Assembly: GCF_041248615.1 (NCBI RefSeq)
Contig: NZ_CP158426.1
Strand: one strand, 5' to 3'
From: Escherichia coli
Lineage (GTDB): Bacteria; Pseudomonadota; Gammaproteobacteria; Enterobacterales; Enterobacteriaceae
DNA length: 64,000 bases
In this document: positions 1,963-39,900 of the stretch, in pieces
Numbering within the stretch: position 1 is the first letter of the stretch
How the letters are laid out: every line of letters begins with the position of its first letter
Notes under the pieces: model-generated
Seen by the model: only the letters and a program-made list of their open reading frames with translations
Told to the model about the DNA's origin: nothing
Databases searched by the model: none
Program-made: the position numbers and the translations under genes

Positions 1963-2254
1963 AAACCACCCCGCAACATCCTATACCGCTATAGTCGCCA
2001 CGGCGAAGGCCGTTACCTTTTGTGATACATTGGTCCCTGCGAACCGCGATCCTTGCACGCTCAACATCACCAGAAGCAACATCCATACACTGAAGCCAAA
2101 GGTGAGCGGCAATGCGGAACTGTCCTTTTTTCTCTCTTTCAATTGCGCGTTTTTCGATCTCTATCGCCGCAGGAGTAACGGCGACAATCTTTGACGGACT
2201 GCGCATTGAAACCTTGTTCATGTGATATTTTTCAAGTCGGCTTAACTTTCTCAC
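1955..2254 (-). CDS. Hypothetical early protein
   Basis: ORF in early leftward operon, 8-nt overlap with downstream MTase start; no recognised motif. Confidence 0.4.
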   Translation of the reverse strand: MRKLSRLEKYHMNKVSMRSPSKIVAVTPAAIEIEKRAIEREKKGQFRIAAHLWLQCMDVASGDVERARIAVRRDQCITKGNGLRRGDYSGIGCCGVVYD

Positions 2255-2363
2255 TTAATCCAACCCTCTCTGAAAATTAATGCCAGCAGATAAAGCCATG
2301 CTGAAACAGAGGCCAGGAATAAGTACCATCCTGACCATTTGCTCCAGTGCCTTAGCAGCACAC

Positions 2364-2612
2364 TCATGCAGCGTTGCTCACAGGACGATATACACGTTGC
2401 TGAACAGGAGGCTTTTTACCCTGGAACTCTGCCGGGCTTGCTGCCTGACGTTCATCAAGCCAACGCTCAACTTCGTCACGGTTCCATGCGCAGCGTTTGT
2501 CAGTGATATACCAGCGTTTAGGAAATTCACCTGCGCGCTCCATACGGTCGATAGTGCTCCATGACAGTGGCACCACCGCCAGGAGTTCCTTCTTACCTAA
2601 TGCACCTTTCAT
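2364..2612 (-). CDS. AlpA-family DNA-binding protein / putative excisionase
   Basis: 82 aa; LSWSTIDRMERAGEFPKRWYI...WNRDEVERWLDER matches AlpA/Xis-type winged HTH; located near int. Confidence 0.65.
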   Translation of the reverse strand: MKGALGKKELLAVVPLSWSTIDRMERAGEFPKRWYITDKRCAWNRDEVERWLDERQAASPAEFQGKKPPVQQRVYRPVSNAA

Positions 2613-4818: not shown

Positions 4819-4908
4819 TTACCTCGGTCTGTTACTGTTGAGGTAATGATTATGCGTATCTGGTTTGATGTCAATAGATATGAGTTAAAAAAATTACCCA
4901 TAAGGTAA
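4819..4908. promoter_or_regulatory. OL-like operator cluster: TTACC half-site at 4819, TTACTGTTGAGGTAA (4832-4846), TTACCCATAAGGTAA (4894-4908)
   Basis: TTACC-N5-GGTAA palindromes located between repressor gene 3' terminator and first leftward early gene. Confidence 0.55.
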
Positions 4909-4965: not shown

Positions 4966-5550
4966 TTATTGTTTGTTTTTTTCGTTCTGGTTGATGACAA
5001 ATTCAATGTAACTTTCGATCTTTGCCTTCTCTGTTTCAGGTAACAATGCGTAGCGCGAGCGGTCATAGTTGATAGTTGCAGGGTCATGCGGATGAATCAG
5101 TAGTTCATATCCGTGACGCCCGAATGCAGATGCAACATTCTCCAGGGTGGAAATGGAAACGCTGACTTCATTGTTTAACAGGCGGCTTATTGTCACCTGG
5201 GCGACGCCGGATGCGCGGTGAAGTTTTCCCTGAGTTGAAAGGTCGCGGCTTTCACTCATCCAGCGTTCCAGGTTGTGAGCTGCCAGCTGACCAATGTCGC
5301 TTGGGCCGACAGGCTGAAAACCTTCCTGAGAAAGCGAGCGATCGATATCAAGCCAGTTACGGGGTTTATTGGCGGCAGCTTCAATTTTTCGCGCAACCTG
5401 GTCGCCGATAACCTTCTTGCCAAGAGCCCAGCGGTTTACCAGATTTGCCTGAGTTCCAAGTTTTTCTGCCATCCGCGTCTGAACACCATTGAATTCACGG
5501 TCGATCAAGTCGTTGAGATTTTGCCTGCGGACGTCCTGGATACTTTTCAT
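4966..5550 (-). CDS. CI-like prophage repressor with two HTH (XRE-type) domains, no S24 peptidase domain
   Basis: 194 aa; two HTH-like segments (res ~10-65 and ~100-150); divergent from Cro-like gene; operator clusters on both sides. Confidence 0.6.
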   Translation of the reverse strand: MKSIQDVRRQNLNDLIDREFNGVQTRMAEKLGTQANLVNRWALGKKVIGDQVARKIEAAANKPRNWLDIDRSLSQEGFQPVGPSDIGQLAAHNLERWMSESRDLSTQGKLHRASGVAQVTISRLLNNEVSVSISTLENVASAFGRHGYELLIHPHDPATINYDRSRYALLPETEKAKIESYIEFVINQNEKNKQ

Positions 5551-11688: not shown

Positions 11689-12019
11689 ATCAGCAGCAGA
11701 GCGCAAAGCCGCTCAGAGAGCCAGACAAGCTGCATCTGGTGTGCGTAAGCTGGAGATTGTGCTTGATGCTCAGGAAATTGAAATGCTGGAGCGTAACTGC
11801 GCCGCCCGGCGCCCTGGTCGAGATCCCTATGAAATGGCCGAGTACATCGCGCTGCTGATCCGCCAGGATGATGCCCGGGTGCGCGGGCGTATAAAATCGA
11901 TCAGCAGAAAACGTTGCGGTAAGTGCGGCGAGAGAGTTCCAGTTAATTCATGCCCGTGCAATGGTGACTCGCAATGCTGGGTGACTAAAGGCTGGCATGA
12001 AACGAAATTAATAGTGTGA
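11678..12019 (+). CDS. Hypothetical protein with C-terminal Cys cluster (CGKCG...CPCNGDSQC); candidate regulator
   Basis: 113 aa; stop codon TGA lies inside palindrome GTGACATGTCAC; last gene before packaging module. Confidence 0.45.
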   Translation: MMAKSAAERKAAQRARQAASGVRKLEIVLDAQEIEMLERNCAARRPGRDPYEMAEYIALLIRQDDARVRGRIKSISRKRCGKCGERVPVNSCPCNGDSQCWVTKGWHETKLIV

Positions 12020-12027
12020 CATGTCAC
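12016..12027. repeat. 12-bp perfect palindrome GTGACATGTCAC (copy 1 of 3)
   Basis: Exact palindrome read in sequence; overlaps stop of upstream gene; terminator 41 bp downstream. Confidence 0.9.
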
Positions 12028-12068
12028 GAGTAGATTATGCATGATGAATTTGATGTGTTTTGAATACT

Positions 12069-12094
12069 GCCGCCAACTATGGCGGCTTTATTTT
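12069..12094 (+). terminator. Rho-independent terminator between early/middle genes and packaging module
   Basis: Stem GCCGCCA/TGGCGGC, loop ACTA, followed by TTTATTTT. Confidence 0.7.
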
Positions 12095-12105
12095 GCATGG
12101 TACTA

Positions 12106-12120
12106 TTACCACAACGGTAA
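12106..12120. promoter_or_regulatory. Operator-like palindrome TTACCACAACGGTAA upstream of terS (weaker second site 12124-12138)
   Basis: Perfect half-sites, 18 bp upstream of terS ATG. Confidence 0.5.
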
Positions 12121-12137
12121 CTATTACCACGGTGGTT

Positions 12138-12734
12138 ATGATGCCTGCTGAACCTAAAACCTATAAACGCAAATCAACGCAATTTAAGCCACTAACAGCA
12201 ATGCAGGAGGCTTATTGCCAGTCATACATCAAAACGCCTGAAAACCAGACTCAGGCAGCGATTAACGCAGGATTCTCCCCAAATACAGCGGCAGTTAAAG
12301 CCAGTGTCATGATGCGCGATGAACGCATTCAAAAACGGATTGCCGAGTTGATGGAGGAGCGCAACAAACGAATGCGCGTCAGTGCTGATTACGTTCTCAT
12401 GCGCCTGGTGGAGATCGACCAGATGGACGTGATCGATATCCTCAACGACGATGGGAGCCTTAAACCAATCCGTGAGTGGCCGAAAATCTGGCGCACTACG
12501 CTTAGTGGCTTTGATCTGTCATCGACCATCATGAACATGAACGAGGATTCGATAGAGACAATCCTCAAAAAAATTAAATGGCCTGACAAGGTGAAGAACC
12601 TCGAACTGATTGGTAAGCACGTCGACGTCAACGCATTCAAAGAACGCCTGGATGTTAATGTGAATGTGACAATTGCTGATCGCATAGCGGCAGCCAGGAA
12701 GAGACTGAAAGAACGTCAGGATGGCAATCAGTGA
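12138..12734 (+). CDS. Terminase small subunit
   Basis: LTAMQEAYCQSY...QTQAAINAGFSPNTAAVKAS...RIQKRIAEL resembles small-terminase family signature; track start 12060 lies inside terminator hairpin and is rejected. Confidence 0.75.
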   Translation: MMPAEPKTYKRKSTQFKPLTAMQEAYCQSYIKTPENQTQAAINAGFSPNTAAVKASVMMRDERIQKRIAELMEERNKRMRVSADYVLMRLVEIDQMDVIDILNDDGSLKPIREWPKIWRTTLSGFDLSSTIMNMNEDSIETILKKIKWPDKVKNLELIGKHVDVNAFKERLDVNVNVTIADRIAAARKRLKERQDGNQ

Positions 12735-14206
12735 CAGATACAGCGTTATCTCCTGAAGAGCAGTTAATCGAGGATATTGCAGGGTTCACTCACGATCCGC
12801 TTGGCTATGCCCTCTATGCGTTCCCGTGGGGGGAAGAGGGTACTGAACTGGCACATGCCACCGGTCCACGTCAGTGGCAGGCCGATGCGTTCCGAGAGAT
12901 ACGTGATCACCTGCAGAATCCAGAGACGCGATATCAGCCGCTTATGCTGGCACGTGCTTCTGGTCACGGTATTGGTAAATCCGCATTCATCTCAATGCTG
13001 ATCAACTGGGGCATGTCCACTTGCGAGGATTGTAAGGTCGTGGTGACCGCCAACACCGACAACCAGCTACGAACGAAGACCTGGCCGGAAATTATCAAGT
13101 GGTCGAACCTTGCTATCACGAAAGACTGGTTTACCTGTACCGCTACCGCGATGTACAGCAATGACCCTGGGCACGACAAGCGGTGGCGAGCTGACGCAAT
13201 CCCCTGGTCTGAGCACAACACTGAGGCATTCGCCGGACTACACAACGAGCGCAAACGCATCATCGTGGTATTCGACGAAGCATCCAACATTGCCGATCTG
13301 GTGTGGGAGGTAGCAGAGGGTGCGCTGACGGACGAAGACACTGAGATTATCTGGGTGGCATTCGGAAACCCTACACGTAACACCGGGCGTTTCCGCGAAT
13401 GTTTCCGCAAATATAAACACCGCTGGAAAACTGCGCAGATTGACAGCCGGACGGTGGAAGGCACTAACAAACAGCAGTTGCAGAAATGGGTTGATGACTA
13501 CGGGGAAGACAGCGACTTCGTTAAAATCCGTGTGCGCGGCATATTCCCGGATGCATCTGAATTGCAGTTTATCCCTACCGGCCTTACTGACGAGGCAATG
13601 AAACGGGTGGTAACCGCTGCGCAGGTTGCACATGCTCCGGTGATAATCGGCGTTGACCCGGCATACTCCGGCGTTGATGACGCTGTGATATACCTGCGGC
13701 AGGGGCTGCACAGTAAGGTGCTATGGACTGGTAACAAGACCACCGACGATCTGATTATGGCGAAGCGTATCGCTGACTTTGAAGACCAGTACCAGGCTGA
13801 CGCAGTGTTCATCGACTTCGGTTACGGAACTGGTCTGAAGTCAATCGGTGATGGCTGGGGACGTACATGGCAACTTGTTCCGTTCAGCGGTGCGTCCACT
13901 GACCCGCAGATGCTTAACAAGCGTGGGGAGATGTTCAACTCATGCAAGACATGGCTGAGGCTGGGCGGCATGCTGGATGACCAGGAAACAGCAGACGACC
14001 TGTCGGCGGCAGAGTACAAAGTTCGAGTGGACGGTAAAATCGTTATCGAACCGAAGGAAGATATCAAGGAGCGGCTTGGGCGTTCTCCTGGTAAAGGCGA
14101 TGCGCTACTGCTGACGTTTGCGTTCCCTGTGTCGAAGCGTCTGCGAATTCCCGGGCAGCAGAACCAGCAAGGCAAGGCCATCACAGATTACGATCCATAT
14201 GCTTAA
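12731..14206 (+). CDS. Terminase large subunit
   Basis: 491 aa; Walker A-like ARASGHGIGKS; ATPase and nuclease-type layout; overlaps terS stop. Confidence 0.85.
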   Translation: MTDTALSPEEQLIEDIAGFTHDPLGYALYAFPWGEEGTELAHATGPRQWQADAFREIRDHLQNPETRYQPLMLARASGHGIGKSAFISMLINWGMSTCEDCKVVVTANTDNQLRTKTWPEIIKWSNLAITKDWFTCTATAMYSNDPGHDKRWRADAIPWSEHNTEAFAGLHNERKRIIVVFDEASNIADLVWEVAEGALTDEDTEIIWVAFGNPTRNTGRFRECFRKYKHRWKTAQIDSRTVEGTNKQQLQKWVDDYGEDSDFVKIRVRGIFPDASELQFIPTGLTDEAMKRVVTAAQVAHAPVIIGVDPAYSGVDDAVIYLRQGLHSKVLWTGNKTTDDLIMAKRIADFEDQYQADAVFIDFGYGTGLKSIGDGWGRTWQLVPFSGASTDPQMLNKRGEMFNSCKTWLRLGGMLDDQETADDLSAAEYKVRVDGKIVIEPKEDIKERLGRSPGKGDALLLTFAFPVSKRLRIPGQQNQQGKAITDYDPYA

Positions 14207-14280
14207 TCCGCTGGTGGGGATAATACTGCTGATATCCTCTGGTGAGGATAAAACAAAGCCAGCTCATCGGCTGGCTGTTT

Positions 14281-14292
14281 GTGACATGTCAC
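14281..14292. repeat. 12-bp palindrome GTGACATGTCAC (copy 2 of 3)
   Basis: Exact; 4 bp past stop of minus-strand gene 14297..14653 and directly followed (minus orientation) by hairpin AGCCAGC/GCTGGCT plus T-run. Confidence 0.9.
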
Positions 14293-14296
14293 GGTG

Positions 14297-14653
14297 TTAT
14301 TGCTCGCTTAACTTCTGCTTCAGCAAGTAACCTTCGAGCATCCAGATTTTGTTTACAGCATTCTGCCGGGCAATCTTCCGACCAATTTCTGCATCAAAAT
14401 TTTCCGGACTTGCACAGGCACTCTCTCCGGTGACGGTGAAGCCATTCTTCAGTACCAATACGCAGAAAGTCAGGAGGTCTGTAGATTTATGCGCTGTCCA
14501 TGAATCGCCAACACCCATATTGGCAGCACGAATGCCGTCATAAGCAGTAAAGAAATGCTCTTCAAGAATGATGCTTTCGATATATTGAGGCGTAACGCGC
14601 GGTGCCGTTTTGCCTTTCTCAACGATTTCTTTTTCGATTTGCTGGTCGTTCAT
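14297..14653 (-). CDS. Hypothetical moron protein, antisense to virion genes
   Basis: 118 aa ORF with SD AAGGTGAG upstream of ATG; lies between terL and portal on opposite strand with own terminator; family unknown. Confidence 0.5.
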   Translation of the reverse strand: MNDQQIEKEIVEKGKTAPRVTPQYIESIILEEHFFTAYDGIRAANMGVGDSWTAHKSTDLLTFCVLVLKNGFTVTGESACASPENFDAEIGRKIARQNAVNKIWMLEGYLLKQKLSEQ

Positions 14654-14766
14654 AATCTCACCTTAAAAAAATGCCCGGCGAACCTGGCGAACTGGAAGCA
14701 ATGAGTTATGCCTTCCGTGGCTGTACGGGTTTACAGCATGAAGTCATCGCAATGGCGTCCTGCTGT

Positions 14767-14809
14767 AAAAAAGGGCGGTGATAGTCCTTCAAGGGAAACT
14801 ATCACCGCC
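14767..14809 (-). terminator. Rho-independent terminator downstream of tRNA-Arg
   Basis: 12-bp perfect stem GGCGGTGATAGT/ACTATCACCGCC with A-run on plus strand (T-run on minus). Confidence 0.7.
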
Positions 14810-14852
14810 AAGCCCCTGGAACTTCTGGCATCACGGTCCTTAGGCGTGATTC

Positions 14853-14929
14853 TGGCGTGGCATGCAGGATTCGAACCTGCGACCAACCGCTTAGAAGGCG
14901 GTTGCTCTGTCCGACTGAGCTAATGCCAC
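14853..14929 (-). tRNA. tRNA-Arg (anticodon UCU), phage-encoded
   Basis: 77 nt; reverse complement GTGGCATTAGCTCAGTCGGACAGAGCAACCGCCTTCTAAGCGGTTGGTCGCAGGTTCGAATCCTGCATGCCACGCCA; 7-bp acceptor stem, T-loop GGTTCGAATCC, anticodon loop CTTCTAA, encoded CCA; close to E. coli argU in layout. Confidence 0.85.
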
Positions 14930-15251
14930 AACGCTGAGAGCACTTAGCCTGTTAAGGCGCCACACTTTGTCGCGGCTCCATAAATGCTCTCATCGTTGTA
15001 CCCTCGTCTCTTCCGAGGCGTCACACCGAATCGCCGGGATGGTGAATCCCCGTGCGCGGAATAAAACCGCTCGACTTGCACATTCCGGCTACCTGGTTCG
15101 TTTGCCCGAGCAAGGGAGGGTGCCCCTTAAACGTATCCAGACCGCTATCGGCGCATGTGCCATACACCGTACTGCTCAAAATAAAATCTCACTCCACCTG
15201 TTCAATTTAACGACAGGCCAGTCAGGTTAGTAACCGGAATGAACTCTTTGG

Positions 15252-15266
15252 TTACCTGAAAGGTAA
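15252..15266. promoter_or_regulatory. Operator-like palindrome TTACCTGAAAGGTAA upstream of head gene cluster, followed by ATATGTGGTT-N5-GGTAAT (15309-15329)
   Basis: Perfect TTACC-N5-GGTAA; downstream motif shared with tailspike upstream region. Confidence 0.5.
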
Positions 15267-15356
15267 TAATTTGTGCGTTAAATGTCAACTGTCTACGATA
15301 AATAAATCATATGTGGTTAAATTGGTAATAATTTAATTGCGTACGGAGTCATTGAT

Positions 15357-15563
15357 ATGTGCATGGGTAGCTCACCATCAGTGCCTGCAACACCAGAAGT
15401 TCAGGCAGCACCACAGGAGCAGGATGCCGCCGTTGTTGATGCCCGCGACGAAGAAACTCGTCGCCGTCGCGCTGCTGCTGGTCGTAGTTCTACGCTGCTT
15501 ACCGGTTCTCAGGGCGACACATCAACCGCTAATACCAGCGGTAAAACGCTGCTTGGTCAGTAA
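15357..15563 (+). CDS. Small Ala/Arg-rich head-module protein
   Basis: 68 aa; shares translation initiation context CGGAGTCATTGA(T/A)ATG with portal gene. Confidence 0.4.
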   Translation: MCMGSSPSVPATPEVQAAPQEQDAAVVDARDEETRRRRAAAGRSSTLLTGSQGDTSTANTSGKTLLGQ

Positions 15564-15577
15564 CCGGAGTCATTGAA

Positions 15578-17257
15578 ATGGCGGAAACAACTAAAGAGCG
15601 ATTGAACAAACAGTTCGCACAACTTGAAAGCGAGCGTCAGTCGTTCGAGCCGCACTGGCGCGAGTTGAGTGATTACATCAACCCACGTGGTTCCCGCTTT
15701 CTGACTTCTGAGGTCAACCGTAACGATCGACGCAATACACGCATTATTGATTCGACCGGGACTATGGCGGCGCGCACTCTCGCCAGCGGCATGATGTCAG
15801 GCATCACAAGCCCCGCGCGTCCGTGGTTTCGCCTGGCTACGCCAGATCCTGAAATGATGGATTATGGCCCTGTTAAGTTGTGGCTTGAGGCAGTTCAGAA
15901 CCGCATGAACGATATGTTCAATAAGTCGAATCTCTACCAGTCTCTTCCGCAGTTATACGGAAGCCTCGGCACATACAGCACTGGTGCAATGGCAGTGCTG
16001 GAGGATGACGAGGACATCATTCGCACAATGCCATTCCCGATAGGCAGTTACTACCTGGCTAACTCACCTCGTGGCAGTGTTGACACCTGTTTTCGCAAGT
16101 TCTCTATGACTGTTCGTCAGCTTGTTCAGGAGTTCGGGCTAAATAACGTCAGCGAATCCGTAAAAAGCATGTGGGAAAGCGGCACCTACGAGAAGTGGAT
16201 CGAAGTGATGCATTCGGTTTACCCGAACATTGACCGCGATACATCGAAGCTGGATAGCAAGAACAAGCCATTCAAATCGGTTTATTACGAGGTTGGTGGA
16301 GATAACGACAAGTTGTTGCGTGAGTCCGGATTCGATGAGTTTCCAATTATGGCTCCGCGCTGGGAAGTTAACGGCGAAGATGTTTATGGATCATCATGCC
16401 CGGGTATGCTGGCGCTTGGACCTGTTAAGGCATTGCAGCTTCTCCAGAAGCGCAAGTCGCAGTTGATTGATAAAGCCACCAATCCGCCGATGGTTGCTCC
16501 GACTTCCCTCAAGAATCAGCGCGCCTCCCTTCTTCCTGGCGACATCACGTATATCGATCAGATTACTGGTCAGGATGGCTTCAGGCCTGCTTATCTGGTT
16601 AACCCCAGTACAGCAGATTTGGTGGCAGACATTCAGGACACTCGTCAAATCATTAACAGCGCCTACTTTGTCGATCTGTTCATGATGTTGCAGAACATCA
16701 ATACCCGCTCGATGCCTGTTGAAGCGGTGATCGAAATGAAAGAAGAAAAACTTCTGATGTTGGGGCCGGTTCTGGAGCGTCTGAACGACGAATGTCTTAA
16801 TCCTCTCATTGACCGCGCTTTCTCGATGATGGTGCGCAAAAACATGCTGCCGCCACCGCCTGACGCGATGGAAGGCATGCCCCTGAAGGTCGAATACATT
16901 TCCGTCATGGCTCAGGCGCAGAAGTCTATCGGCCTGTCCAGTCTGGCGTCCACGGTTAACTTCATTGGTCAACTTGCGCAAGCGAAACCAGAAGCTCTCG
17001 ACAAACTCAACGTTGATCAGGCGATCGATGCATTCGCTGATATGTCCGGAGTGTCTCCAACCGTCATTGTTCCGCAGGAACAGGTTGAGCAGGCTCGCCA
17101 GCAACGGGCACAGCAACAACAGCAGCAACAAATGATGGCGATGGGGATGGCGGCGGCACAGGGGGCCAAGACGCTAAGCGAAGCTAAAACTTCGGATCCG
17201 AGTGTGTTGTCAGCTATGGCGAATGCAGTTAGTGGTCAGGGTGGGCAATCACAATGA
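15578..17257 (+). CDS. Portal (head-to-tail connector) protein, podovirus type
   Basis: 559 aa, position after terL, C-terminal Q-rich tail; resembles T7 gp8-type connector by recollection. Confidence 0.75.
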   Translation: MAETTKERLNKQFAQLESERQSFEPHWRELSDYINPRGSRFLTSEVNRNDRRNTRIIDSTGTMAARTLASGMMSGITSPARPWFRLATPDPEMMDYGPVKLWLEAVQNRMNDMFNKSNLYQSLPQLYGSLGTYSTGAMAVLEDDEDIIRTMPFPIGSYYLANSPRGSVDTCFRKFSMTVRQLVQEFGLNNVSESVKSMWESGTYEKWIEVMHSVYPNIDRDTSKLDSKNKPFKSVYYEVGGDNDKLLRESGFDEFPIMAPRWEVNGEDVYGSSCPGMLALGPVKALQLLQKRKSQLIDKATNPPMVAPTSLKNQRASLLPGDITYIDQITGQDGFRPAYLVNPSTADLVADIQDTRQIINSAYFVDLFMMLQNINTRSMPVEAVIEMKEEKLLMLGPVLERLNDECLNPLIDRAFSMMVRKNMLPPPPDAMEGMPLKVEYISVMAQAQKSIGLSSLASTVNFIGQLAQAKPEALDKLNVDQAIDAFADMSGVSPTVIVPQEQVEQARQQRAQQQQQQQMMAMGMAAAQGAKTLSEAKTSDPSVLSAMANAVSGQGGQSQ

Positions 17258-31530: not shown

Positions 31531-31827
31531 ATGCAAGCTATAGGATTCATTGTTTATATCGTCGTTGGTCTTTTTCAGTTGGCAGCAATTATGGCTGGGC
31601 TTGAATCATGGTGGGGATTGCACTGGATAATTGCAGCCCCCATCGCTTTCATCGTGAGCTATATTCCATTTGTTGGAGCGATTGTTGGTATGGTTGGCGC
31701 TGTGGATGTATGGCGGTGGGAGTGGTGGCAGGCTGGCCTTCTATTCTTTGGTGGGATAATCTTTGCTATTGTCTGCGGTGGAATGTCATCATTTTTCGAA
31801 TGGCTATCATTCAGAAAAGAGACGTGA
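31531..31827 (+). CDS. Small integral membrane protein (3 predicted TM helices)
   Basis: 98 aa, highly hydrophobic; stop TGA lies inside GTGACATGTCAC. Confidence 0.5.
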   Translation: MQAIGFIVYIVVGLFQLAAIMAGLESWWGLHWIIAAPIAFIVSYIPFVGAIVGMVGAVDVWRWEWWQAGLLFFGGIIFAIVCGGMSSFFEWLSFRKET

Positions 31828-31835
31828 CATGTCAC
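31824..31835. repeat. 12-bp palindrome GTGACATGTCAC (copy 3 of 3)
   Basis: Exact; overlaps stop codon of membrane protein gene; terminator hairpin starts at next base. Confidence 0.9.
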
Positions 31836-32865: not shown

Positions 32866-33576
32866 TCAGAAGAACCCTGCCTTGTCGTTGATGTATTCCG
32901 CGTGAGTCTGGATATCACGCAGGCATTTGCTCACACCGACGATGTAGCAAAACATGGTGGTCAGCTCCGCCGCCGCGCCCGATACGTCGTGCCCGTCGTC
33001 CTGTAACTGGTTCAGCAGATTCATCAGCAGTGAGTTCTCCGTCAGGCCGAGAACACCAGACGGAGAATGAATCAGACTGCGGTAGCCGGGCTTCAGTGGG
33101 GCGCTGTAGGTTTTGTTCTCTATCTTCATTGCCTGCATCACTGCTGATGCTGTGGCGTTGGCTACCTGGTCGGCAACCATCTTTATGCGTTCTTCCTGCG
33201 GGAGCGAGTTTTTAATGTAACTTCCGGTGCGGCGGATCTGAGGAAGAACCTCACCTGTAACCCATTTACGAAAGCGGTAGGGGATAGTGCCTGGTGTCAC
33301 CGCATCGCGGCAGCGGAGGATCAGTGTGTAGAGGCCTGACTCGGAGATGATGTTGATCTCTTTTACTCGGCTGTCAAAAATCGCACGATGTTCATGCCCT
33401 ATGTTGAACATAGACCTTTCATCATCATCCAGTTTTTCAAGTGATTGGGTGACGTTTTGGATACGCAGCGCACTACAAACGTCTTGGGCTACAAACCATG
33501 GTTGGCCATCGATAATGATGGAACGGATAGGGTTAACAGATTCAAATTTGAAGATGGCAGTTTGAGCATTAGCCAT
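32866..33576 (-). CDS. Antirepressor (Bro-N domain plus C-terminal Ant-type domain)
   Basis: N-terminus FKFESVNPIRSIIIDGQPWFVAQDVCSAL...ISESGLYTLILR...VLPQIRRTGSY is a Bro-N signature; ATG 33576 has GGAG SD (track GTG start 33591 rejected). Confidence 0.7.
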   Translation of the reverse strand: MANAQTAIFKFESVNPIRSIIIDGQPWFVAQDVCSALRIQNVTQSLEKLDDDERSMFNIGHEHRAIFDSRVKEINIISESGLYTLILRCRDAVTPGTIPYRFRKWVTGEVLPQIRRTGSYIKNSLPQEERIKMVADQVANATASAVMQAMKIENKTYSAPLKPGYRSLIHSPSGVLGLTENSLLMNLLNQLQDDGHDVSGAAAELTTMFCYIVGVSKCLRDIQTHAEYINDKAGFF

Positions 33577-33845: not shown

Positions 33846-33860
33846 TTACCGCAAAGGTAA
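33846..33860. promoter_or_regulatory. Operator-like palindrome TTACCGCAAAGGTAA
   Basis: Perfect half-sites, 32 bp beyond the 3' end of gene 33892..34149. Confidence 0.45.
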
Positions 33861-33891: not shown

Positions 33892-34149
33892 TTATCTGGT
33901 TTGTTTTCGTAATTGTTCGGCACAATAGTCGAGATGTGTTTGCAGATCCCGCATAGACATCTGTGAGCTGGTGACGTAGTTAATCAGTGCAGTCAGTTCG
34001 GCAAGTGGGCCATCGACATTAAATCCATCCTTATCGAGATCCCGGAGTAATTTCATCAAGTGCGATCCCTCCACCAGTGACCTGACGCCTCCCGGCGTGT
34101 GAATCCTTTCGGTAAATCCGTCTTCCAGTGGATAGTGATACTGCTGCAT
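33892..34149 (-). CDS. Small stand-alone antirepressor-domain protein (85 aa), LexA-box controlled
   Basis: ATG 34149 with SD GGAGAAG; sequence aligns with C-terminal ~65 aa of the Bro-N antirepressor (IH-P-GV...LM-LL..L..DG..V.G..AELT...YV...RD-QTH..Y); LexA box 22 bp upstream. Confidence 0.5.
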   Translation of the reverse strand: MQQYHYPLEDGFTERIHTPGGVRSLVEGSHLMKLLRDLDKDGFNVDGPLAELTALINYVTSSQMSMRDLQTHLDYCAEQLRKQTR

Positions 34150-34168: not shown

Positions 34169-34188
34169 AACTGTATATTTATACAGTA
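34169..34188. promoter_or_regulatory. LexA (SOS) box AACTGTATATTTATACAGTA
   Basis: CTGT-N8-ACAG with AT-rich spacer, near consensus TACTGTATATATATACAGTA; immediately upstream of small antirepressor gene. Confidence 0.7.
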
Positions 34189-34344: not shown

Positions 34345-36927
34345 ATGACGGTCTCAACCGAAGTTGACCACAACGAATACACCGGTAACGGAGTTACGAC
34401 ATCGTTTCCGTATACTTTCCGCATTTTCAAAAAATCCGACCTGGTTGTTCAGGTGTCTGACCTGAACGGGAACGTAACAGAATTGGTTCTGGATACCGGT
34501 TATACAGTAACTGGAGCTGGCACTTATAGTGGCGGTTCTGTGGTTCTTCCGTCTCCGCTTGCTACTGGATGGAGAATTACGATAGATCGTGTGCTTGATG
34601 TAGTACAGGAGACAGATCTTCGCAATCAGGGAAAGTTTTTTCCCGAAGTGCATGAAGATGCCTTTGACTACCTGACGATGCTGATCCAGCAATGTTTTGG
34701 GTGGTTCAGACGTGCATTGATGAAACCATCTTTGCTTGCAAAATATTACGATGCAAAGCAAAACAGAATTTCTAACCTTGCAGATCCATCACTTGAGCAG
34801 GACGCTGTAAATAATCGCTCAATGCGTAATTATGTCGATGCTGCAATCGCCGGAGTTGTTGGTGGTTTTGGTTGGTTTATTCAGTATGGTTCTGGGGCAG
34901 TATACAGAACGTTCCAGGATAAGATGCGTGACGTTTATAATGTTAAAGATTATGGGGCGAAAGGTGACAATATTAACGATGATACGCTAGCATTTATTGC
35001 AGCAGCAAATGCTCTCGGAGAGGGCGGAAAGTTATATATTCCAACAGGAACATACAATTTAACTGGTCCAGTTAATATACCACCAGTGAATATGTGCGGC
35101 GATGGGCAGGGTGAAACAGTTATTGTGTTTGACAATACCACATCACCAAAAGACGGCTTTGTTTTCGCTGCGCCAACTAAATATGATATTGAATTTGGTT
35201 TAAGTCACCTTACAGTTAAAAGAAAAGGCGGGAATGGAGCTAATGCTATATATACCCCAAGAGGTGTCGGGCTTAACCATCTAAGACCAAAACCAACATT
35301 TAGATTTTTATCTTTCTGTTCTGAAACTGCAAATATTGATTCTGATGAATTCGCTCAGAAATACGGCTGGGAATGGTCTTTTAACTGTGGTGATAGTTGG
35401 CAGTTCACAATCGAACGCATTGATGCTGTTGGATGTTATCAGATAGCCAAAAGTTATAATGAACAGTTCCTTGATGGATTCATTCGCACCGCTCCAGAAG
35501 AGGGGATTTTATCAATGCGTGTGAGTGATATCACAACGCATAATGTTGCAAATTTTTTTGAAATTAAGCAGAAGACATATTTTACATTGCTTAATATTGA
35601 TGCCGCCAAGGCATTACGAGGCATTTACGACGCTGATGATCGTATATTTGAAACGAATCGTTATGCTTATGGTGAATGTATATGCACAAATGTTGGTATT
35701 AATGCCCAACTTGAACCAGTACGGCTGGATAACAGATTCCTGCTCATCATGAATGGTATGTTTATTCACCGCGCAGCAAAAGGTTACGATCATGGTCTGG
35801 AATGGGTTGGTCTTAAGCTTAGTCGTGCTCGCGTGTGTTCATTCCAGGGAATTGAGATCGGCACTGCCAGAGGGTATTCAGGGACTAAGAAAGGGATTGT
35901 TCTTGACGCCGGTGATGCAAATAACTTTACCAATGTAACTTTTGGTTTGCTTGATGTGTGCGCACAGATTGGCGATTCCAATTCACAGTATGGTGCCAAC
36001 TTTGCAACATGCTTTAATAATGTGAGCATTAATGCTGACACCGTATTGTTATTCGATTTGCAGCTATGCAGAAATTTCCATTGTGATGGATACGGAGCAT
36101 CTTCTGCCTACACTCTTCAGCAATTCCATAGGAACAGTGATGACACAAGCAATACTTATACATTTAGTAATGTAGGTAAACACAATCTCTACACTGACAA
36201 CTCGCTGTACCTACATAATTCTGCTTCGCTGGAGAACGGGAAGAATATACGTATTGATACACGAAACGGATTATCTGTTAGCACTCAAGCAGATACTGGT
36301 TCCGCAGGAAATAACTTCCTTATAATTCGTAGGACTGGTGTTGATATAGACAGTTTTGAGTTAAGGACTCGCAGTACAGCAGGTGCATATACATATATTA
36401 ATACACCTGAAACTCATTTTTCTGGCCTTATAAAACCAACTGTTGATAATGTTAACTCAAACGGAACATCAGCATTTCGATGGTCACAGGTATACGCTGG
36501 TACTGGCAGTATCAACACGTCGAATGAAGAGCTGAAATTGCGTATTGAGGCTGACGAGAAAACAACAGAATCAGAGCGTCTTGCTGCGCTTGAAATAAAG
36601 GAAAATATCTGGAGGTTTAAATTTAAAGATGCAGTAAAGATCAAGAGTGATGGCGCTCGGATTCATTTCGGTGTTGGTGCACAAACTGTAGGTAATATTC
36701 TCAGAAAATACGGTCTTGACCCTAATAACTATGCGTTCTGGTGTTATGATGAATGGGATGATATTTATGCTCCAGAAGTATTGATTAGGAGTGTTAAAAA
36801 CAATGAAACAGGAGAGTGGTACGACGAGGAATATTACACAGGAAGGCAGATTATTATTAAACCTGCTGGCTATCAGTATGGTATCAGATACGAGGAACTT
36901 CTGATGTTTATTCTTATGTTTATTTAA
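34345..36927 (+). CDS. Tailspike / tail fibre protein with conserved N-terminal attachment domain and AT-rich exchangeable distal part
   Basis: 860 aa; N-terminal ~190 aa at phage-typical GC, remainder AT-rich; Gly/Asn-rich beta-helix-like repeats; C-terminal segment possibly a chaperone-like domain. Confidence 0.7.
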   Translation: MTVSTEVDHNEYTGNGVTTSFPYTFRIFKKSDLVVQVSDLNGNVTELVLDTGYTVTGAGTYSGGSVVLPSPLATGWRITIDRVLDVVQETDLRNQGKFFPEVHEDAFDYLTMLIQQCFGWFRRALMKPSLLAKYYDAKQNRISNLADPSLEQDAVNNRSMRNYVDAAIAGVVGGFGWFIQYGSGAVYRTFQDKMRDVYNVKDYGAKGDNINDDTLAFIAAANALGEGGKLYIPTGTYNLTGPVNIPPVNMCGDGQGETVIVFDNTTSPKDGFVFAAPTKYDIEFGLSHLTVKRKGGNGANAIYTPRGVGLNHLRPKPTFRFLSFCSETANIDSDEFAQKYGWEWSFNCGDSWQFTIERIDAVGCYQIAKSYNEQFLDGFIRTAPEEGILSMRVSDITTHNVANFFEIKQKTYFTLLNIDAAKALRGIYDADDRIFETNRYAYGECICTNVGINAQLEPVRLDNRFLLIMNGMFIHRAAKGYDHGLEWVGLKLSRARVCSFQGIEIGTARGYSGTKKGIVLDAGDANNFTNVTFGLLDVCAQIGDSNSQYGANFATCFNNVSINADTVLLFDLQLCRNFHCDGYGASSAYTLQQFHRNSDDTSNTYTFSNVGKHNLYTDNSLYLHNSASLENGKNIRIDTRNGLSVSTQADTGSAGNNFLIIRRTGVDIDSFELRTRSTAGAYTYINTPETHFSGLIKPTVDNVNSNGTSAFRWSQVYAGTGSINTSNEELKLRIEADEKTTESERLAALEIKENIWRFKFKDAVKIKSDGARIHFGVGAQTVGNILRKYGLDPNNYAFWCYDEWDDIYAPEVLIRSVKNNETGEWYDEEYYTGRQIIIKPAGYQYGIRYEELLMFILMFI

Positions 36928-39360: not shown

Positions 39361-39900
39361 TTAATTAAACCAGCTGTCCGATTTGTTCTCTTCTGCTTTG
39401 CCCACGCTTTTCATCATATCTCGACCGCCCTCAGTCATATTCCTGTTTGCGTCAGCTTCAGATTGCACCACATCGGTTTGCGCAGCTTTGTGCTTCAGTT
39501 CCTGATCGATAAATTCGTTTTCTCGCTTAACGCGGGCTTCTTCTTTCGCCAGCGCCAGTTTTTGTTTCTGAATCTCTAAACTGCGCAGCTCATCTTCATA
39601 ACTTTGATCGCGTTTTTTGTCCGCAGTGGCTTCGGCGTCCAGTTTATCCTGACGAGCTTTCTTATTCGCCGCTGCCGTTGCCGCTCTTTTATTAGCCGCG
39701 GCCTGGGCGTTTGCGCGACGTTGCTTCTCTTGCTGGATTTCCCTGTTGCGCTCCGCGACCCATTCGTCATGCTGCCTTTGCTCTTCATTTTTACCTTGCT
39801 GTTCCGCTTCTGCGACAGCAGAGAGTTGATCCTGCAATGATGAGGCGATAGCCGGATAGCTTAAGGAGGCTAAGATGGCGCAAAGAAAAACTTTCTTCAT
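39361..39900 (-). CDS. yfgI: YfgI (nalidixic acid resistance-associated periplasmic protein)
   Basis: 179 aa, signal peptide, charged coiled region; matches recollection of E. coli YfgI and local synteny. Confidence 0.85.
   Translation of the reverse strand: MKKVFLCAILASLSYPAIASSLQDQLSAVAEAEQQGKNEEQRQHDEWVAERNREIQQEKQRRANAQAAANKRAATAAANKKARQDKLDAEATADKKRDQSYEDELRSLEIQKQKLALAKEEARVKRENEFIDQELKHKAAQTDVVQSEADANRNMTEGGRDMMKSVGKAEENKSDSWFN

Follow-up and report, generated by a model that had tools for sequence, protein, structure and literature searches.

The 64,000-nucleotide stretch of Escherichia coli DNA analyzed here (contig NZ_CP158426.1; hereafter, the window) contains a prophage of the epsilon15/phiV10 type (genus Uetakevirus), in which a cassette carried by the minus strand separates the large terminase gene terL from the portal gene. 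A first-pass annotation of this cassette had described a tRNA-Arg(UCU) gene and a 118-aa open reading frame (ORF), which we assign to the Acb4 family of phage proteins, and had left the interval 14930-15356 empty. It had missed there a conserved RNA element that is structured and, with very little room for doubt, functional, and that appears to represent an undescribed family. We further propose, with evenly divided confidence, that the locus is a single leftward accessory operon of the prophage, the leader RNA of which would act as a gate comparable to the put RNAs found in phage HK022. Both the ORF and the tRNA are of known kinds and are already annotated in RefSeq (the ORF as "Gp49 family protein"); the novelty would lie in the leader RNA family and in its proposed role as a gate.

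The core of the element, about 187 nt long (14992-15178, minus strand), consists of helices P1, P2, P4, and P5 and of a pseudoknot formed by the loop of P4 (UCACC) with a GGUGU located downstream. In an alignment (A3) of 41 representatives sharing less than 93% identity, 98.2% of the cells pair and compensatory changes are seen at 13 of the 27 pairs. Five pairing measures were compared with 500 shuffles, no shuffle attaining the observed value of any of them, and controls with slid partners pair at 26-51%. Invariant G-U pairs exist on the minus strand of the window alone, and the minus strand is therefore the sense strand of the RNA. Long single-stranded segments of the core are also invariant. 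The 5' leader that connects the predicted start site to the core (15179-15253, minus strand) is folded within a structure with a z-score of -3.8; its length differs among relatives. On the other side, the core is followed by a long hairpin (14928-14999, minus strand) with 19-nt arms (14928-14946 and 14981-14999) that are 89% complementary. This hairpin ends at the 5' end of the tRNA, which is the RNase P site, and it is retained in mEp460 and Stx2c phages that do not carry the tRNA. The covariance model R1 scores 148.9 bits on the window element, where it finds a single copy, as it does in each locus (exactly one copy per locus). A protein-coding reading of 14930-15356 was rejected: this interval contains short non-ATG ORFs only, and its substitutions are those of compensatory pairing.

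In a search with Rfam 15 (cmscan), no family matched the element with E ≤ 1 on 13800-15800, the only matches being the tRNA and its antisense artefact; with E ≤ 0.1, nothing was found at the element in five other carriers (L004, L006, L008, L009, and L010) or in the pL region of HK022. The element is not described in the literature searched: its sequence strings were not found in full texts, and searches for put-like or antiterminator RNAs gave the same result. A preprint on the Pas small RNA (sRNA) proved unrelated to it. By sensitive BLAST, the sequence 14930-15170 is ~80% identical to noncoding DNA of phages P1 and P7, between trnI and ban. At this same level of identity, the search detected it next to cI in the lambdoid phages mEp460, cdtI, and 2H10 and in Stx2c and Stx2a phages, as well as in Klebsiella, Enterobacter, Salmonella, and Stenotrophomonas phages. 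The exact 19-mer GGTAGCCGGAATGTGCAAG taken from the element is present in at least 120 IMG/VR contigs and served to gather the set of 120 loci used below. Close variants occur in about a fifth of the complete E. coli genomes (1063 of 5426), and they are never annotated. A 28-base composite pattern retrieved seven loci from species-representative genomes (Citrobacter, Kosakonia, Escherichia, and one doubtful contig of a metagenome-assembled genome), which says little on host range. Many temperate phages, among them P1 and Stx-converting phages, thus have early operons headed by a widespread covarying pseudoknot RNA that has gone unannotated.

The genomic contexts of the 120 loci are diverse. 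According to the neighboring genes, 49 belong to the Uetakevirus terL/portal type, a cI-type repressor gene lies upstream in 30 (six of these being also of the Uetakevirus type), ban lies downstream in six, and 41 are of other types. In most of the 101 distinct contexts, the core is preceded at 8-125 nt, as measured from the -10 hexamer to helix P1, by a promoter that overlaps operator-like palindromes, at least nine kinds of which were distinguished. The cI-type repressor gene ends ~100-170 nt upstream of the element in 22 loci, and the core often directly follows its terminator. In L080 and L117, which have HK022-type operators, the element occupies the position of HK022 putL. Downstream of the element, our scan found terminator-like hairpins at a frequency of 0.79 per locus over the nearest 250 nt and of 0.55 over the 250 nt beyond. 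Most of the farther bins contain 0.01-0.1 hairpins per locus, with two outliers at 0.23 and 0.38, neither of which has strong hairpins downstream; the enrichment within 500 nt of the element is roughly ten-fold or more. A terminator is followed by an ORF on the same strand within 400 nt in 76 of 95 contexts. Among the 53 non-Uetakevirus contexts, ORFs of at least 100 aa account for 113.5 kb of downstream coding sequence on the same strand versus 8.9 kb on the opposite one (93% same strand). In mEp460, no promoter-like site was found between the terminator and the first early-left gene. The first early-left gene of mEp460-type phages matches only families of unknown function in PHROGs, which lend no support to an N-like function, and none of the loci of the element contains a homolog of lambda N or HK022 Nun. 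An rrn-type boxA (TGCTCTTTAACAA, or one change from it) lies 34-39 nt past the core in L029, L069, L081, and L118. As it was found in four of 116 contexts, boxA is a hint and not a rule; these four loci are mostly devoid of a nearby strong terminator.

This constancy of place and orientation bears on whether the element works as RNA at all. It adjoins the replicative helicase gene ban in P1, and its hairpins could also form in single-stranded DNA, as would suit a single-strand initiation signal, a recombination site, or a binding array. We regard a role as DNA as very remote: the invariant G-U (G-T) pairs are found on one strand only, the element keeps a constant place just downstream of promoters in the sense orientation of the operon, and no link to replication genes exists in the other 114 contexts.

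In the window, the predicted promoter of the cassette (15260-15295, minus strand) is composed of TTGACA (15288-15283), a 17-nt spacer, and TACCTT (15265-15260); an alternative call of the prediction tool is TAGACA-18-AATTAT (15295-15266, minus strand). No other promoter-like site was found on the two strands of 14100-15700, and this one stands 300 nt upstream of the tRNA. The architecture TTGAC(A/C/T)-17-TACC(T/C)T is kept in all epsilon15-type loci. The -10 hexamer is contained in an operator-like palindrome, TTACCTGAAAGGTAA (15252-15266), which is a putative site of the prophage repressor, and the annotators of epsilon15 placed a repressor site at the homologous position. Sites of the form TTACC-N5-GGTAA, with at most one mismatch, number 16 in the window versus 1.09 expected, a number reached by none of 100 shuffles. 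Pairs of them flank the repressor gene (4966-5550, minus strand) at 4832/4894 and 5606/5654. Sites were recorded at 4832, 4894, 5606, 5654, 5991, 7937, 7999, 12106, 12124, 15252, 32785, 33846, and 34226. The presence of operators at many operon starts, beyond the immunity region, suggests that most transcription units of the prophage may be under direct repressor control. Because its -10 hexamer overlaps a repressor operator, the cassette promoter is predicted to be repressed in the lysogen. The cassette would then be one operon that is silent in the lysogen and expressed early under the control of the repressor, which the sequence makes probable, if by a modest measure.

Three hairpins with features of terminators punctuate this putative operon. 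T1, an intrinsic terminator behind the tRNA (14764-14809, minus strand; hairpin 14809-14774), has a 14-bp stem, a U6 run, and a predicted energy of -22.3 kcal/mol in our own scan; the tRNA does possess the terminator with which it had been credited. An inverted-repeat search identified next to it a hairpin with 18-nt arms, I2 (14769-14730, minus strand). T2 (14665-14688, minus strand) has the sequence GCCAGGTTCGCCGGGC followed by U7 and contains one stem mismatch in the window; its perfect form, GCCCGGTTCGCCGGGC-T(5-8) (-11.2 kcal/mol), is present in the tRNA-to-ORF spacers of 18 of 22 distinct relatives. The Acb4-family gene (14297-14653, minus strand) starts with an ATG preceded at 4 nt by the Shine-Dalgarno sequence AGGTGA (14658-14663), a strong one, as had been noted before. 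The block formed by this sequence and the ATG begins within 14 nt of the U-run of T2, and in relatives the cargo genes are joined exactly after this U-run. T3 (14276-14257), identified by promoter and terminator prediction, would end the cassette and probably also terL; the equivalent hairpin of phiV10 is annotated as a plus-strand terminator following terL. Between the ORF and T3 stands a perfect 12-bp palindrome, GTGACATGTCAC (14281-14292), and the palindrome and terminator reported earlier downstream of the ORF are thus both present.

We propose the following scheme. On the minus strand, the operon would comprise a repressor-controlled promoter (~15260-15295), a leader of ~320 nt containing the RNA core, the tRNA, T1, T2, acb4, and T3. 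In the lysogen, the prophage repressor would hold the promoter off, and upon infection or induction the operon would be transcribed early. The leader RNA would fold on emerging, remain bound to its own RNA polymerase, and confer resistance to T1 and T2 in cis, so that the cargo gene would be reached only by transcripts from the operator-controlled promoter. The leader would be released when RNase P cleaves the transcript at the tRNA 5' end. The tRNA would supply decoding capacity for AGA/AGG-rich phage genes. The Acb4 tetramer would sequester cyclic dinucleotides of the cyclic-oligonucleotide-based antiphage signaling system (CBASS), namely 3'3'-cGAMP, cUA, and probably cAA, and the host effector would remain untriggered. 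Promoter use, repression, terminator read-through, RNA polymerase binding, and ligand binding are all predicted from sequence.

HK022 putL and putR and HK639 putL are protein-independent processive antiterminator RNAs. Like them, the element is noncoding, follows a repressor-controlled early promoter in phages lacking N, and has terminators and long operons downstream; like HK639 put, it exists in one copy per genome. The lambda N/nutL/tL1 region obeys the same logic, with a promoter, an RNA signal, a terminator, and early-left genes, and boxA follows the element in four carriers. The element differs from lambda nut in that no N or Nun homolog is encoded near it and the R1 model requires no boxB-like small hairpin. 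Because the succession of promoter, RNA, terminator, and operon matches that of HK022 put and lambda nut/N, we favor a cis-acting processive antiterminator, a role to which we give slightly less than even to even weight. The activity of HK022 put is independent of a tether to the nascent transcript (PMC9378689), and the presence of a tRNA downstream is compatible with the antiterminator model because HK022 put needs no such tether. Read-through conferred by put is independent of added factors and is blocked by rpoC mutations in the zinc-binding domain of the beta' subunit; for the element, read-through and polymerase binding are predicted. The element is also found outside immunity regions, at the Uetakevirus terL-portal junction and in the ban operon of P1, unlike put. 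Somewhat more tentatively, the RNA might constitute a second class of protein-independent processive antiterminator after HK022 put, structurally unrelated to it and gating swappable anti-defense genes. The passage of early terminators in N-less lambdoid phages is a gap noted in phage genomics (PMC12315714). If the element is an antiterminator, the way in which these phages pass early terminators would become directly testable, and phiV10-like phages would make their swappable anti-defense proteins only from a repressor-controlled early promoter.

Several observations weigh against this proposal. The -10 hexamer predicted for the cassette (TACCTT) is weak, and the operator could act on a plus-strand promoter of the gp3-portal operon, either alone or together with that of the cassette. 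In P1, the element stands 91 nt before ban with no terminator between them. The early-left operon of the window prophage itself (4812-1121) is without a copy of the element. At the terL-portal junction, the RNA would have a single gene to serve, and a polymerase passing T3 would enter terL in the antisense direction. Phage epsilon15 has lost the RNA core, the tRNA, and the left arm of T1, that is, half of this terminator, yet it has kept T2 and acb4. The element, with ~187 nt and five helices including the pseudoknot, contrasts with put, which has ~70 nt and two stem-loops. The best score of R1 in the pL region of HK022 is 1.7 bits (E = 1.2), and R1 has no hit with E ≤ 1 in HK639, in which putL is annotated. 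The terminator scan across loci is a home-made heuristic. As the loci were collected with the exact 19-mer GGTAGCCGGAATGTGCAAG, its invariance is by construction and diversity is under-sampled. Finally, the layout of promoter, RNA, and terminator is equally typical of a stand-alone small RNA gene. Homology to the put RNAs was rejected: R1 has no significant match in HK639 or HK022, the MAFFT alignment with HK639 putL is unconvincing, and the two kinds of RNA share the short strings CAUGCGUCG and GGAAGAG only. In epsilon15 (L005, 2560-2760), the deletion fuses helix P2 to the 3' half of T1, and the promoter/operator, helix P1, and I2 are also kept.

The resemblance to a small RNA gene corresponds to the most serious competing explanation, in which the leader is a stable, stand-alone noncoding RNA acting in trans by binding a host protein or RNA or as a defense decoy, one end being set by the promoter and the other by T1 or RNase P. 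The terminators would then merely end the RNA/tRNA gene, and acb4 would be expressed by leaky read-through. A promoter, a structured RNA, and a terminator within 350-500 nt are the usual anatomy of an sRNA gene, and the long invariant single-stranded segments would suit a partner in trans. The 3' hairpin of the window element stops at the very point where RNase P would cut to free the tRNA, and the P1 element lies between a tRNA located 16 nt upstream and ban without a terminator, as if punctuated by tRNA processing. Phage T4 offers a precedent with rnaC and rnaD, stable RNAs of unknown function co-transcribed beside a tRNA-Arg. In this T4 cluster, as in the cassette, a phage tRNA-Arg(UCU) is co-transcribed with stable structured RNAs the ends of which are set by tRNA processing; it differs in that the RNAs follow the tRNA and in that T4 is lytic. 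A kinship of the element with rnaC and rnaD was rejected, as there is no similarity in sequence or structure and the covariance scores are at most 0.4 bits. All the non-Uetakevirus contexts, however, are heads of multi-gene operons on the same strand that have no other recognizable repressor-controlled promoter, and efficient termination would for this reason silence the early-left genes of these carriers. Cargo genes also begin within 14 nt of the terminator U-run, and a fixed orientation relative to the downstream genes would not be required of a free-standing sRNA gene. We therefore consider an RNA acting in trans unlikely, although it deserves attention.

The tRNA also enters into another possibility, that of a cis-regulatory sensor or processing platform, either riboswitch-like or protein-binding, acting on tRNA maturation, transcript stability, or access of Rho, with terminators passed constitutively at a basal rate. 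RNAs that bind a ligand or a protein typically contain, as this one does, a pseudoknot and highly conserved nucleotides left unpaired, and the annotators of epsilon15 predicted an RNase III site nearby. The recurrent link with tRNAs reading rare codons also fits this possibility. A tRNA gene follows the element on the same strand, 73-378 nt away, in 31 of the 120 loci, and it is always a tRNA-Arg(UCU), diverged variants included; in P1-like loci, a tRNA-Ile(CAU) lies 16 nt upstream of the element. This reading is nevertheless improbable: the terminators are 130-500 nt from the core, too distant for a conventional expression platform, ~85 of the 120 carriers have no adjacent tRNA, and no alternative pairing between the core and a terminator was seen. 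Tracts resembling parts of a tRNA, with T-arm and acceptor strings such as CTGGTTCAATTCCAGACAGTCCCA, are present in the 3' region of the leader in L010 (Stx2a_WGPS2, ~2250-2500, minus strand), L084, and L100. ARAGORN calls no tRNA at these sites, which may be remnants of a tRNA-Arg module.

The tRNA of the window (14853-14929, minus strand; anticodon UCU, CCA encoded) is upheld by ARAGORN and by the Rfam tRNA model (73.3 bits, E = 1.2e-15), and it is annotated in RefSeq. A20 and C35 are identity elements for arginyl-tRNA synthetase (ArgRS) in E. coli tRNA-Arg. The D-loop AGUCGGACA places an A at position 20 following G18 G19, and the anticodon is U34 C35 U36, as read from the sequence. Both ArgRS identity elements and the cloverleaf are thus present. 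The first-pass annotation had suggested that it might support phage genes rich in AGA and AGG, and codon counts agree with this idea. AGA and AGG represent 18.6% of the arginine codons in 48 prophage genes versus 5.8% in eight host genes of the window (odds ratio 3.7, Fisher p = 1.4e-5), and the tailspike gene by itself contains 19 of them.

The 118-aa product of the ORF (WP_000999689.1) had been described as an unknown protein, a description that no longer holds. The PF13876 profile matches its residues 20-115 over model positions 1-82 of 82 (i-Evalue 2.6e-34). PF13876, the N4 Gp49/Sf6 gene 66 family, is the Pfam family both of this protein and of Acb4 (anti-CBASS 4) of Bacillus phage SPO1. 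By sequence, the only match among solved structures is Acb4 of SPO1 (PDB 9E4W, E = 0.006). Structure prediction, which the first-pass annotation had proposed as a check, gives the same answer. In Foldseek searches of the PDB with the AlphaFold2 model (pLDDT 84.3, pTM 0.71), chains of 9E4W occupy ranks 1-13 (probability 1.00, E ~4e-4; target-normalized TM score 0.6-0.7), the next match having an E value of 0.17. The model reproduces the fold of the Acb4 protomer, with a three-stranded sheet, flanking N-terminal helices, and a long C-terminal helix. Chang et al. showed that SPO1 Acb4 forms a tetramer that acts as a sponge, taking up 3'3'-cGAMP and related CBASS signals (PMC11722364). The same study defined PF13876 as the Acb4 family, with 1,331 members, and its family table includes the phiV10, epsilon15, Sf6, and N4 homologs (PMC11722364). 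Binding of 3'3'-cGAMP was observed for all eight homologs tested, with additional binding of cAA by those from Gram-negative phages (PMC11722364). A Shigella protein of the published table (A0A2S8DH85) is identical to the ORF product at 116 of 118 positions. SPO1 makes Acb4 early in infection. Membership of the ORF product in the Acb4 family is, from its sequence and its modeled fold, virtually certain.

The two proteins are ~24% identical, and that of the prophage has an additional N-terminal helix and a variable central insert. The core motif GESAC...ENF(D/N)xEIGR is kept. The ligand contacts of SPO1 Acb4 are K36, F48, E49, V56, Y57, F62, N63, I66, T70, and K81, K36 and K81 being outside the aligned stretch. 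F48, F62, and I66 are retained as F72, F86, and I90, and N63, which makes a backbone contact, corresponds to D87. Four contacts are changed, E49 to T73, Y57 to A81, T70 to I94, and V56 to C80. The replacement of the first three, among them the guanine-reading residue E49, weighs against a straightforward transfer of the SPO1 function, and the ligand range of the ORF product may differ from that of SPO1 Acb4 for this reason. With this reservation, the protein is likely to be a functional cyclic-dinucleotide sponge.

In the Uetakevirus-type loci, the slot located after T1 and T2 is occupied by nine variants of Acb4 or by at least six unrelated small genes, and it is a true swap site. In a phiV10-like IMG/VR contig (L124), Acb4 is replaced by a 98-aa Tad2-like sponge (PF11195, E = 4e-24; Tad2 and AcrIIA7 relatives in the PDB), the ORF of which starts 347 nt downstream of the RNA core. 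The other occupants are proteins of 80, 99, 115, 125, and 139 aa of unknown function; they comprise a repeat protein of TL-2011b, that of 115 aa, and four further families. Since most relatives carry Acb4 in this slot and one carries Tad2, its five or six remaining occupants are good anti-defense candidates, and the position behind T1 and T2 could be used as a source of such genes.

The cargo therefore has to be compared with morons, small autonomous genes, since the first-pass annotation had seen in the tRNA and the ORF independently transcribed units typical of lysogenic conversion or defense, with a possible weak LexA box in the promoter region of the ORF, a model in which both would be expressed from the prophage. 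The cassette indeed resembles the morons of temperate phages (Hendrix-type) in that its gene is small and swappable, is placed between conserved structural genes, and is followed by its own terminator, T3. It also resembles anti-defense islands, the alternative occupants of which include the Acb4 and Tad2 sponges, and its antisense orientation and flanking terminators are in keeping with a moron. A promoter of its own that would be active in the lysogen is not apparent at the sequence level: no promoter-like site was found between the tRNA/T1 and the ATG of the ORF in the scan of 14100-15700, the Shine-Dalgarno sequence abuts the U-run of T2, and the sole promoter, upstream, overlaps an operator. 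The independence of the two units is consequently not borne out. Unlike morons, the cassette has no private promoter, and its expression appears to need the upstream operator-controlled promoter and passage through terminators, which makes expression in the lysogen unlikely. The protein belongs to a family of phage counter-defense sponges, expressed early in SPO1. Cargo that is accessory, immunity-related, and on the opposite strand of the structural module is confirmed, but, because PF13876 is the Acb4 sponge family, it is counter-defense and not defense or lysogenic conversion.

The motif invoked for LexA control, CTGT-N8-ACAG (CTGTACGGGTTTACAG, 14721-14736), is present and is retained in most close relatives. 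This retention is uninformative because the entire tRNA-to-ORF spacer is nearly invariant (~98% conserved). The window has three matches to the bare pattern versus 0.72 expected; since five of 100 shuffles reach three, it is weakly non-random. This site agrees with the LexA consensus TACTGTATATATATACAGTA at 12 of 20 positions, its spacer ACGGGTTT is G+C-rich, it overlaps the 3' arm of I2, its left half being a hairpin arm, and it overlaps no promoter. These features make it a poor LexA box and lend no support to control of the ORF by LexA, which was rejected on account of the poor consensus match, the hairpin arm, and the lack of a nearby promoter. Another site of the prophage, CTGTATATTTATACAG at 34171-34186, comes close to the LexA consensus. 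Taken together, these points make two independent, lysogen-expressed morons a quite improbable description of the locus. The box at 34171-34186 precedes a minus-strand operon (33892-34149) with a BRO-N antirepressor gene (32866-33576) and stands between this operon and the tailspike gene (34345-36927, plus strand), with operator-like sites at 33846 and 34226. It looks like the likelier SOS input to the prophage, through a LexA-controlled antirepressor route.

The prophage extends from position 1 to ~39150 of the window, and host genes (yfgI onward) start at 39361. The integrase gene is at the left edge, followed by the true early-left operon (4812-1121) and the repressor gene. The terminase genes terS (12060-12734, small subunit) and terL (12731-14206) are separated from the small gp3 homolog (15357-15563) and the portal gene (15578-17257) by the 1150 bp of the cassette region (14207-15356, from the terL stop to the gp3 start). 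Capsid and tail genes follow the portal gene, and the lysis genes extend to 39141. The opposite-strand stretch of 1.1 kb reported between terL and the portal gene is thus confirmed, and all the sequence features named in the first-pass annotation were located where it had placed them. The same antisense layout is common to phiV10, O157 typing phages 9 and 10, ZX5, HEMP4, and others, with 90-97% identity. The antisense cassette is a genus-conserved arrangement and not a private insertion.

Some carriers of the element encode other RNAs. Phages mEp460 (L006, 4834-5035) and Stx2a_WGPS2 (L010, 4779-4980) possess, on the plus strand, a C4 antisense RNA, its a1/b1 targets, and an isrK-like RNA ahead of an antirepressor gene, all known Rfam families. 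In Stenotrophomonas phage BUCT708 (L008, 1855-1974, minus strand), a match to the RprA sRNA below the gathering threshold (50.2 bits for a threshold of 70, E = 0.001) was noted 32 nt past the element on its downstream side; its end falls within the terminator of that locus group.

ORFs antisense to the tRNA or to the RNA element were noted in the window (14708-14923, plus strand), in phiV10 (p04, L001, 2672-2923), in L003 (2507-2758), and in mEp460 (gp37, L006, 2430-2798). These possible or deposited ORFs are probably annotation artefacts, and several deposited records, among them phiV10 p04 and mEp460 gp37, could be cleaned up accordingly; the tRNA itself is unannotated in the phiV10 and TL-2011b records. 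The palindrome GTGACATGTCAC has three copies in the window (12016-12027, 14281-14292, and 31824-31835) versus 0.13 expected, a number reached by none of 100 shuffles. Each copy lies at a boundary between modules: one precedes terS, one separates terL from acb4, and one closes the structural operon. Two of the three overlap a TGA stop codon.

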